Source of the DNA: Gammaproteobacteria bacterium
Lineage (GTDB): Bacteria; Pseudomonadota; Gammaproteobacteria; RBG-16-57-12
Assembly (NCBI GenBank): GCA_021647245.1
Contig: JAKIVC010000011.1
Coordinates: 1,470 to 65,469, forward strand
DNA length: 64,000 nt
Direction of reading: 5' to 3'
The position numbers and the translations under genes are program-made. Shown here one piece after another: positions 57,383 to 58,412 of this stretch. The notes under the pieces were generated by a model. That model saw only the letters and a program-made list of their open reading frames with translations. It was not told where the DNA came from and did no database searches. Numbering within the stretch: the stretch's first letter is position 1; every line of letters starts with the position of its first letter.

Positions 57383-57399
57383 AACATACTCTCAATAAT

Positions 57400-57491
57400 G
57401 TAGGGTGCGTTTTACGCACCACGAACATCCGTGCATAAAATTTAGTTCGCAATATAAATTACCGTTGTTTGGCGCATGGAGTGCACCCTAC
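57400..57491. repeat. REPIN copy A (GTAGGGTGC ... GCACCCTAC palindromic unit) downstream of RAYT
   Basis: 92-nt unit bounded by GTAGGGTGCgttttacGCACC hairpin and GCGCATGGAGTGCACCCTAC hairpin; about 85% identical to the copy at 58060-58168. Confidence 0.75.
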
Positions 57492-57500
57492 CTAGTTTAG

Positions 57501-58052
57501 TTATGGCTCACCAAAACTATCTTGCTCTTGATGATTAACCACACCAGCCCAATCCGTTTCATAAACACCTTGTCGAACATATCGATGAAACGTCGAATGC
57601 GGCCAATCCGCTACCTTTTCTACCAACCCATGTTTCACCGGGTTATAGTGCAAATAATCCATATGTTTTTCATAATCCCTATCATCACGGATTTGATGTT
57701 CCCAAAAACGCCGTTGCCAAATGGTTGATTCTTTCCTTTTTTGTTTTGATGGGTTCATCCACGCATCTCGTTTTAATTCCGGACCGCATTGTTTGGTTAC
57801 ATATCGCTTTATCATCGCCCAACGAGCCCCGAAGTTGGCGTCATCGGACGGTAATGTCCAGATGCTATGAAGATGATCAGGCAATAACACCCATGCATCA
57901 ATGGTGAATGGATGAGTAGCTTGTGTAGCCTTAATACCTTCACGTAATGCGTTCCGAACCATTTCATTACATAAAAATCGTTGCCGCCTGTAAGTCACCA
58001 CCGTAAAAAAATAAGTCCCGCCTTTCGCATTCGCTCTCCGATAATTCGGCAT
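57501..58052 (-). CDS. REP-associated tyrosine transposase (RAYT, IS200/IS605-like Y1 transposase)
   Basis: 183 aa; HuH motif LPDHLHSIW and catalytic Tyr region LHYNPVKHGL; flanked on both sides by REPIN copies. Confidence 0.85.
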   Translation of the reverse strand: MPNYRRANAKGGTYFFTVVTYRRQRFLCNEMVRNALREGIKATQATHPFTIDAWVLLPDHLHSIWTLPSDDANFGARWAMIKRYVTKQCGPELKRDAWMNPSKQKRKESTIWQRRFWEHQIRDDRDYEKHMDYLHYNPVKHGLVEKVADWPHSTFHRYVRQGVYETDWAGVVNHQEQDSFGEP

Positions 58053-58059
58053 TAATTAC

Positions 58060-58168
58060 GTAGGGTGCGTTTTACGCACCATAAGCATCCGTGATTAAAA
58101 TTAATTCGTAAAATATTCATCATTCATTTCCATAATTATCGTTTTTTGGTGCATGGAATGCACCCTAC
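58060..58168. repeat. REPIN copy B upstream of RAYT
   Basis: 109-nt unit GTAGGGTGCGTTTTACGCACC...GGTGCATGGAATGCACCCTAC; direct orientation relative to copy A. Confidence 0.75.
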
Positions 58169-58412
58169 CTGGCTCGCGATCAACCACCGCCTTCATGAGC
58201 TGCACTCGTTGAAACTGCGCGGGGTGTTTGGATGGCAGCGCGCCTTTCTTGACCAGCACCCTCTTGCCAGCATACATCGCCGGGGCAGCAAGGTCGTGAA
58301 CCGCCGCATACTTGGCGATACTTTTTCCCGATGCTGCGCAGGCCCGCAGGTGATCAAGCCAGTAACGCTGGCGCTCTGTCAGTGCTGTCGTGCCTGCTTC
58401 TGCTTCATTCAT
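58101..58412 (-). pseudogene. IS66-family tnpA (orf1) remnant, 3' end replaced by REPIN B
   Basis: 103 aa ORF; TERQRYWLDHLRACAASGKSIAKYAAVHDL matches the IS66 TnpA accessory-protein pattern (RAYW..HL.AW..SGLS...YCR.HGL); last ~23 codons are read from REPIN sequence; tnpB/tnpC absent. Confidence 0.5.

Follow-up and report, generated by a model that had tools for sequence, protein, structure and literature searches.

REP-associated tyrosine transposases (RAYTs) are named after repetitive extragenic palindromic (REP) sequences. In the REP-associated groups, RAYTs have been described as single-copy genes with vertical inheritance that cannot copy themselves (PMC5581495; bioRxiv 10.1101/2021.07.10.451892). 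For the Escherichia coli protein RayT (TnpA-REP, YafM; PDB 4ER8), roles have been assigned to residues Y115, H59/H61, N119 and H123, together with a mechanism in which GTAG acts as a guide, cleavage occurs at CT and strands are transferred (PMC3479197). In Pseudomonas fluorescens SBW25, inverted REP doublets of ~100 nt (REPINs) flank a single RAYT gene (PMC3116915; PMC3337134). Here we analyze a RAYT gene with a REP doublet on either side, found in a stretch of 64,000 nucleotides from a gammaproteobacterial, Methylococcales-like metagenome-assembled genome (MAG; GenBank GCA_021647245.1, contig JAKIVC010000011.1, positions 1,470 to 65,469); this whole stretch is called the window below. The unit lies in an operon for an extracellular contractile injection system (eCIS), directly beside the scar of an insertion sequence (IS) of the IS66 family. 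We consider it probable that the unit is a REP-RAYT cassette that is older than the IS66 scar, and that is itself young and has spread between the effector slots of eCIS operons.

The RAYT gene (57501-58052, minus strand) is the only one in the window and encodes an intact protein of 183 aa. It matches the full length of the NCBIfam equivalog model NF047646 (REP_Tyr_transpos, "REP-associated tyrosine transposase"; profile positions 1-146) with 196.1 bits, the cutoff being 80 bits, while the Pfam domain Y1_Tnp (PF01797) matches residues 15-68 only and reaches 21.5 bits, below its gathering score of 23 bits. The sole homologue with a solved structure is E. coli TnpA-REP (PDB 4ER8, E=4.6e-45), likewise a HUH/Y1 nuclease. 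The alignment pairs LLPDHLHSIW with VLPEHMHCIW and HMDYLHYNPVKHG with HVDYIYINPVKHG, so that the HUH (HLH) histidines and the Y..N...H active-site motif correspond in the two proteins. The window protein differs from E. coli RayT by its moderate identity (46.6%, tblastn against plasmids) and by a 19-aa insertion at residues 91-109. Its plasmid relatives, E. coli rayT among them, are all below 60% identity (tblastn), and no relative was found in viral contigs in two scans, one with the RAYT protein and one with an 18-sequence alignment. Because of the NF047646 score, the Y1_Tnp match below cutoff, the 4ER8 match and the similarity to E. coli RayT, we classify the open reading frame (ORF) 57501-58052 as an intact RAYT of the E. 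coli-like ("Group 2"-like) type, to which it is closer than to Group 3 of Pseudomonas, and not as a canonical IS200/IS605 transposase. The original prediction, made from the sequence alone, had proposed a 183-aa HuH/Y1 transposase of the RAYT type here, and the profile and structure matches agree with it.

Two REP doublets in direct orientation enclose the gene, one downstream (REPIN A, 57400-57491, minus strand, 92 nt) and one upstream (REPIN B, 58060-58168, minus strand, 109 nt). Aligned over 91 ungapped columns, the doublets share 86.8% identity, and two indels, of 18 nt and 1 nt, distinguish them further. Each flank opens with GTAGGGTGC and closes with GCACCCTAC, and is thereby made up of two mutually inverted REP units. 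In REPIN A these are REP1 at 57400-57420 (plus strand) and REP2 at 57471-57491 (minus strand), the latter with a stem weakened by two substitutions; in REPIN B they are the inner REP1 at 58060-58080 (plus strand) and the outer REP2 at 58148-58168 (minus strand). A unit reads GTAGGGTGCGTTTTACGCACC on the plus strand and GTAGGGTGCA(C/T)TCCATGC(G/A)CC on the minus strand, that is, GTAG followed by a hairpin with a 7-bp stem and a 3-nt loop. The two versions, GTAG+GGTGCGT-TTT-ACGCACC and GTAG+GGTGCAT-TCC-ATGCACC, differ by compensatory G:C to A:T changes in the stem. The inverted arms of REPIN B extend over 25 nt with 80% complementarity around a 59-nt spacer, and folds of whole elements come out as either two small hairpins or a single long one, with z-scores of only -2.1 to -3.1. 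All four copies of the exact 9-mer GTAGGGTGC in the 64 kb fall in the two flanks, and the two REP 21-mers have 2+2 matches at up to 3 mismatches, compared with 0 expected from 100 shuffles; the occurrence of these REP units is beyond chance. Rfam gave no match at E≤1 over 56500-59500. The original prediction had placed the RAYT and its flanks at 57385-58175 and had described flanks of ~100 nt and ~85% identity, with inverted termini and internal hairpins, in direct orientation and in the arrangement characteristic of RAYT-REPIN systems; in all these respects it proved accurate.

As in E. coli with its REP/BIME sequences, cognate REPs, each a 5' GTAG plus an imperfect hairpin, lie on either side of the gene, and a CT on the plus strand abuts the outer foot of both doublets (57492-57493 and 58169-58170). 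Unlike in E. coli, the flanks are doublets with spacers of 50-67 nt, in direct orientation on both sides, and the cassette resides inside a horizontally mobile toxin-delivery operon with signs of recent movement of the whole cassette. The similarity to SBW25 lies in the inverted doublets around a single RAYT and in the natural occurrence of both singlets and doublets; the window differs from SBW25 in having no extra REP copy within 64 kb and in spacers that are only weakly self-complementary. The same doublet architecture surrounds the RAYT relatives at six further loci (L250, L182, L199, L142, L149 and L188). RAYTs at least 69% identical to that of the window have doublets on both sides in direct orientation, as here, and those 54-57% identical have a single inverted REP per side.

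The outer boundary of the cassette is a conserved 5' extension, GCCAGG on the coding strand (58169-58174, minus strand), where the IS66 breakpoint also lies. The edge (G)CCAG|GTAGGG recurs beside differing left contexts in L244, L249, L250, L149, L182, L199 and L257. We considered CCAG as a part of the REP2 consensus and rejected this, as it is present in only 5 of 57 dispersed REP2 copies. At one pair of loci (L262 7752-8000 and L263 2720-2968), a complete REP doublet is followed by the first six or seven RAYT codons (ATGTCTGATTATCGAAGA), an AGA|GCCAGG junction and a second full cassette, which reflects either the insertion of one cassette into another or a deletion between tandem cassettes.

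The REP family is found well outside this locus. At least 120 metagenome contigs contain the exact 21-mer GTAGGGTGCGTTTTACGCACC, which is common in sediment metagenomes; these contigs cannot be assigned to the genome of the window, and no copy number per genome can be derived from them. Among the matches listed, it takes the form of tight doublets (spacers of 4-9 nt), doublets with spacers of 60-75 nt, which resemble the flanks in the window, singlets and tandem arrays. A RAYT stands beside a minority of the dispersed copies (26 of all the loci fetched contain a RAYT match), and the 240 loci picked for the REP motif alone are essentially without eCIS genes. Among the ~260 fetched loci, no dispersed REPIN with the spacer of flank A or B was found outside RAYT loci. 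A looser pattern, GTAGGGTGCGNNNNNCGCACC, returned REP-like matches in genome contigs across many phyla (Pseudomonas, cyanobacteria, Planctomycetota and others, among the matches listed) and is too permissive for a REP count in the host. Simple REPIN doublets do not explain a further organization on metagenome contigs, in which 3 to 9 copies of the exact 21-mer follow one another head to tail, with periods of 31, 52 and 73 nt (L137 8709-8791, L165 5980-6093, L226 724-1160 and L225 2468-3100).

This dispersal bears on the reading of the unit as an ordinary IS200/IS605-type element whose flanks are the left and right ends and whose transposase mobilizes only itself. The likeness to elements such as IS608 and ISDra2 is real: hairpin-bearing ends enclose a Y1 HUH transposase, these ends are precise and lack DDE-type terminal inverted repeats (IRs), and the same bounding nucleotides are met in differing contexts. 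The unit has evidently moved whole between loci, its GC content (42%, against 50% for the window) is unlike that of its surroundings, and the window holds no REP copy besides its own. However, the protein scores 196 bits with the RAYT model and remains below the Y1_Tnp gathering score, it carries a RAYT-type C-terminal extension, and its best solved homologue is TnpA-REP. The two ends, moreover, are homologous GTAG-hairpin doublets (87% identical) instead of a distinct left and right end, and they also occur dispersed alone, the identical 21-mer being found mostly without a nearby RAYT. Thus neither a Y1_Tnp match above the gathering score nor distinct ends absent as solo repeats were found, and we regard this explanation as unlikely.

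The operon around the cassette is that of an eCIS, with co-oriented genes for Pvc16_N, WHD+AAA (Pvc15-like), eCIS_core/DUF4157, tube, Phage_base_V spike and GPW_gp25 baseplate proteins; DUF4157 is a domain that marks both the eCIS core and toxins (PMC8213781). The cassette occupies the cargo or effector slot between the DUF4157 effector gene and the S8 protease, tube and baseplate genes, on the operon strand. Four close relatives of the RAYT (P0002, 85%; P0242, 86%; P0013, 81%; P0118, 85% identity) are also found in eCIS operons, and each lies on the operon strand, past DUF4157 effector-type genes and ahead of the tube gene. Three others (P0003, P0007 and P0010, 78-84%) have ordinary chromosomal neighborhoods, recBCD and aroC-lpxK being among the contexts of close RAYTs, and one (P0008, 80%) lies between TcB/TcC-like and TcA-like toxin genes. 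At this last kind of locus (L250/L251 5859-6705), an 80%-identical cassette with doublets on both sides and an extra solo REP separates a TcB/TcC-like RHS toxin gene from a TcA-like gene; the Tc toxin locus is a second kind of toxin-delivery locus that hosts the cassette. A member of the RAYT cluster with more than 90% identity comes from a Methylococcales MAG, and proteins with at least 70% identity to this RAYT number in the thousands. Among loci found through the S8 gene, decayed remnants occupy the same eCIS slot, with a RAYT pseudogene and a second REPIN bearing a RAYT stub in L257/L258, and a RAYT fragment ~60 nt upstream of S8 in L253; L264 and L265 also hold decaying eCIS-resident copies.

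We observed a marked difference in divergence between the RAYT and the genes around it. Across five eCIS loci, RAYT proteins are 78-87% identical, compared with 30-70% for five eCIS proteins, and the two measures are uncorrelated. Nucleotide homology extends from the outer edge of the upstream doublet (-122 to -125) as far as the stop codon of the RAYT or the downstream REP, and the flanks beyond are unalignable; the noncoding upstream REPIN can be aligned at ~80% identity where the neighboring coding DNA cannot be aligned at all. Synonymous divergence (dS, Nei-Gojobori method, NG86) is 0.43-1.06 for RAYT, with a third-position identity of 0.63-0.78. For the five eCIS genes dS ranges from 1.4 to saturation, values above ~1.5 being unreliable in absolute terms, with a third-position identity of 0.24-0.52, and this includes the closely related pair formed by the window and L257. 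Because the dS of RAYT is far below that of its neighbors, the cassette appears to be younger than the operons and to have spread among them. Identity, homology limits and dS together argue against purely vertical inheritance of this RAYT subclade.

If the RAYT were instead an old, domesticated and slowly evolving gene of the eCIS lineage, its shared slot would simply reflect common descent. The constant slot and orientation across all eCIS loci would fit this, as would the monophyly of the eCIS-resident RAYTs in the neighbor-joining tree, and some RAYT groups are reported to evolve slowly (PMC5581495). Yet RAYT divergence at synonymous and third positions is far below that of the five flanking genes in every pair, and the noncoding upstream REPIN aligns beside coding DNA that is unalignable. 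RAYT divergence does not follow that of the eCIS, equally close RAYTs are found in recBCD, aroC-lpxK and Tc-toxin contexts, and the decaying copies in L264, L265, L257 and L253 speak against an essential function in the operon. We rejected co-divergence of RAYT with eCIS on the basis of dS and of the limits of nucleotide homology, and consider co-inheritance quite improbable. The best reading is that the cassette was captured once and then spread to diverged eCIS loci, each time into this slot.

On its upstream side, the cassette adjoins an IS66-family remnant (58175-58493, minus strand) whose left IR, GTAAGCGCC, lies at 58485-58493 and whose tnpA (58170-58412, minus strand) is cut after ~81 codons. 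Its likeness to the IS66 family consists of this terminal IR followed by a small tnpA-like ORF, the latter assigned through a marginal match to NCBIfam NF047593 (28.9 bits with a cutoff of 28, profile positions 1-69 of 79); against plasmids the fragment has a single match, at 32% identity (tblastn). An IS66 element has a tnpA-tnpB-tnpC set between GTAAGCG-type IRs, with an 8-bp target duplication; of the genes and IRs, the scar retains one IR and ~81 tnpA codons: in its ~319 bp, tnpB, tnpC and the right end are missing. The scar is separate from the RAYT cassette, and its sequence is unique within the window. The IR also provides the TAA stop of the gene that it interrupts, a DUF4157/eCIS_core effector-type gene of which the N-terminal 121 codons are left (58491-58856, minus strand); this fragment is 64% identical to the N-terminus of a 902-aa eCIS_core protein in L257. 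Within the terminal region of the IS66 element, GTAGGGTGGGGTT (58468-58480) resembles the REP core at 11 of 13 positions, 300 nt from the cassette edge, which is most likely a coincidence.

Comparison with close assemblies indicates the order of events. An identical RAYT protein is encoded in three other assemblies: L001 (GCA_021648105.1), L002 (GCA_024278815.1) and L003 (a Logan contig). From 58174 downstream, the sequences of L001 (4174 nt) and L003 (3715 nt) match the window with 0 mismatches (100% identity). Upstream of the equivalent of 58174, in contrast, they have no IS66 at the junction and continue into an intact 3' part of the DUF4157/eCIS_core gene, which supplies the C-terminal part missing from the window (Pfam eCIS_core, E=4.4e-23). 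L002 has the same IS66 junction as the window. Because the identical cassette and downstream DNA adjoin an intact DUF4157 3' end in L001 and L003, and because a deletion is irreversible, so that the IS66-joined state is the derived one, the cassette is older than IS66 at this locus. The original prediction had the RAYT nested inside the IS66 remnant; IS66 sequence is found upstream of REPIN B only, with none downstream, and the order that it implied is reversed.

By this comparison, the cassette was already in the slot beside the DUF4157 gene when an IS66-family element inserted into this gene. A deletion then took away the greater part of IS66 together with the 3' portion of the DUF4157 gene, stopping at the exact outer edge of the cassette. 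Its likely cause would be RAYT cleavage at the REP end, or recombination of REPIN B with a second REPIN copy. On this comparison the DUF4157 effector gene of this strain was destroyed by IS66 and the deletion, not by the RAYT. In the IS66-free haplotype (L001 837-846 and L003 619-628, corresponding to 58165-58174 in the window), the GTAG of the REP contains the TAG stop codon of the DUF4157 gene. The REP hairpin thus begins directly where the coding sequence stops, and termination or the stability of the mRNA of this gene could be influenced by it.

Could the junction of REPIN B with IS66, or with DUF4157, be an assembly chimera formed at a ~110-nt repeat? REPINs are repeats, all of the sequences are short-read MAG or metagenome contigs, and both L001 and L002 start near or inside this region. 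But each junction is present in two independent assemblies, one in the window and L002, which are 5 SNPs (single nucleotide polymorphisms) apart elsewhere, the other in L001 and L003, and the REPIN spacer has no other copy in any fetched locus, which makes a chimera very unlikely. Weaker still is the case for an IS66 element that entered the eCIS first and decayed, with the RAYT-REPIN unit landing later in its scar: although the IS66 left end and truncated tnpA directly adjoin REPIN B, IS66 is confined to one side, the identical cassette stands beside an intact DUF4157 3' end in L001 and L003, and relatives without IS66 have cassettes or remnants in this very slot, so that we dismiss this order as extremely improbable.

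Downstream of the cassette, REPIN A abuts the start of the S8 gene, as the original prediction stated. The spacer before the ATG at 57382 measures 17 nt (57383-57399, minus strand; ATTATTGAGAGTATGTT on the coding strand). The gene (54878-57382, minus strand) is a cargo-slot gene of the eCIS that encodes an S8 subtilase of 834 aa with two proprotein-convertase P domains (Pfam PF00082 and PF01483), and orthologues of matching length (831-834 aa) confirm its start codon. The further suggestion that the native promoter or 5' untranslated region had been displaced was not supported: a GAGAG Shine-Dalgarno-like motif is kept within the spacer (57389-57393), and in relatives S8 always follows closely on other operon genes, as in L257, where 10 nt separate it from a tube-gene fragment. 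No sigma-70-like promoter was predicted in 57000-59200, nor any REP-associated terminator, and there is no evidence of any former promoter before S8. Because the RAYT is co-oriented with the operon, read-through transcription would be the simplest expectation.

The S8 gene may have a mobile history of its own. In L257/L258 (4718-4990), a 90-aa ORF just upstream of S8 matches the first 82 residues of the tube protein at 89% identity, and a full tube gene follows downstream of S8; this pair of observations suggests that the S8 gene itself arrived by insertion and that the 5' end of the tube gene was duplicated in the process. L254-L256 encode an S8/P-domain protease with 80% identity to that of the window in chromosomal surroundings that are not those of an eCIS (genes for a beta-lactamase, a hydrolase and a sensor kinase), and therefore the protease gene moves independently of eCIS. 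The 5 SNPs that separate L002 from the window all fall in either S8 or the gene after it. In L002 the S8 protein is called as 705 aa (P0122; position 55267 of the window corresponds to 3081 in L002), which fits a premature stop and the loss of the second P domain.

By analogy with E. coli TnpA-REP, the RAYT would bind the folded REP hairpin and its 5' GTAG on single-stranded DNA, cut, and rejoin the strand nearby, and such cutting and rejoining would disperse REP and REPIN copies. A more far-reaching proposal, which we regard as possible but rather doubtful, is that this RAYT subclade, far from being a domesticated and immobile single-copy gene, is a still-mobile REPIN-RAYT-REP cassette favoring the eCIS effector slot just 3' of DUF4157 toxin-marker genes, and possibly further polymorphic-toxin loci, Tc toxins being an example. 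It would spread between unrelated eCIS loci and drive the deletion or exchange of effectors through its REP ends, the deletion of IS66 and DUF4157 sequence at the cassette edge in the window being one such event.

Several points weigh against our reading of a young cassette that spread among eCIS loci before IS66 arrived. A search at up to 3 mismatches found 0 REP copies in the 64-kb window beyond the four flanking units, and NG86 values of dS above ~1.5 are, as noted, unreliable in absolute terms. In the neighbor-joining tree the eCIS-resident RAYTs form one clade, sister to chromosomal copies, with weak support (95 of 200 bootstraps), and because of this single clade their occurrences in eCIS loci are not independent captures. 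The contexts sampled were those of the closest RAYT relatives on long contigs, eight of them independently sampled, which limits any inference of enrichment in eCIS, and every locus compared is a metagenome or MAG assembly. The IS66 assignment is marginal at the level of tnpA, and the proposed way in which the deletion came to end at the cassette edge is an inference. Weighing these points with the evidence above, we still hold it probable that a cassette older than the IS66 scar has recently spread between eCIS effector slots.

Taken alone, the element is an ordinary member of the known RAYT-REP system, and what is new is its context. The main survey of eCIS does not mention transposases (PMC8213781), and a full-text literature search returned no paper joining RAYT or REPIN with "contractile injection". 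The recurrent and recent occupation of the eCIS effector slot departs from the picture of RAYTs as immobile, vertically inherited genes. If this hypothesis is true, these loci would be natural examples of the movement of a whole RAYT cassette and would point to a possible route by which REP/RAYT systems enter new genomes. The cassette would also be a candidate for what drives the turnover of effector slots in those contractile injection systems that are being engineered for protein delivery.

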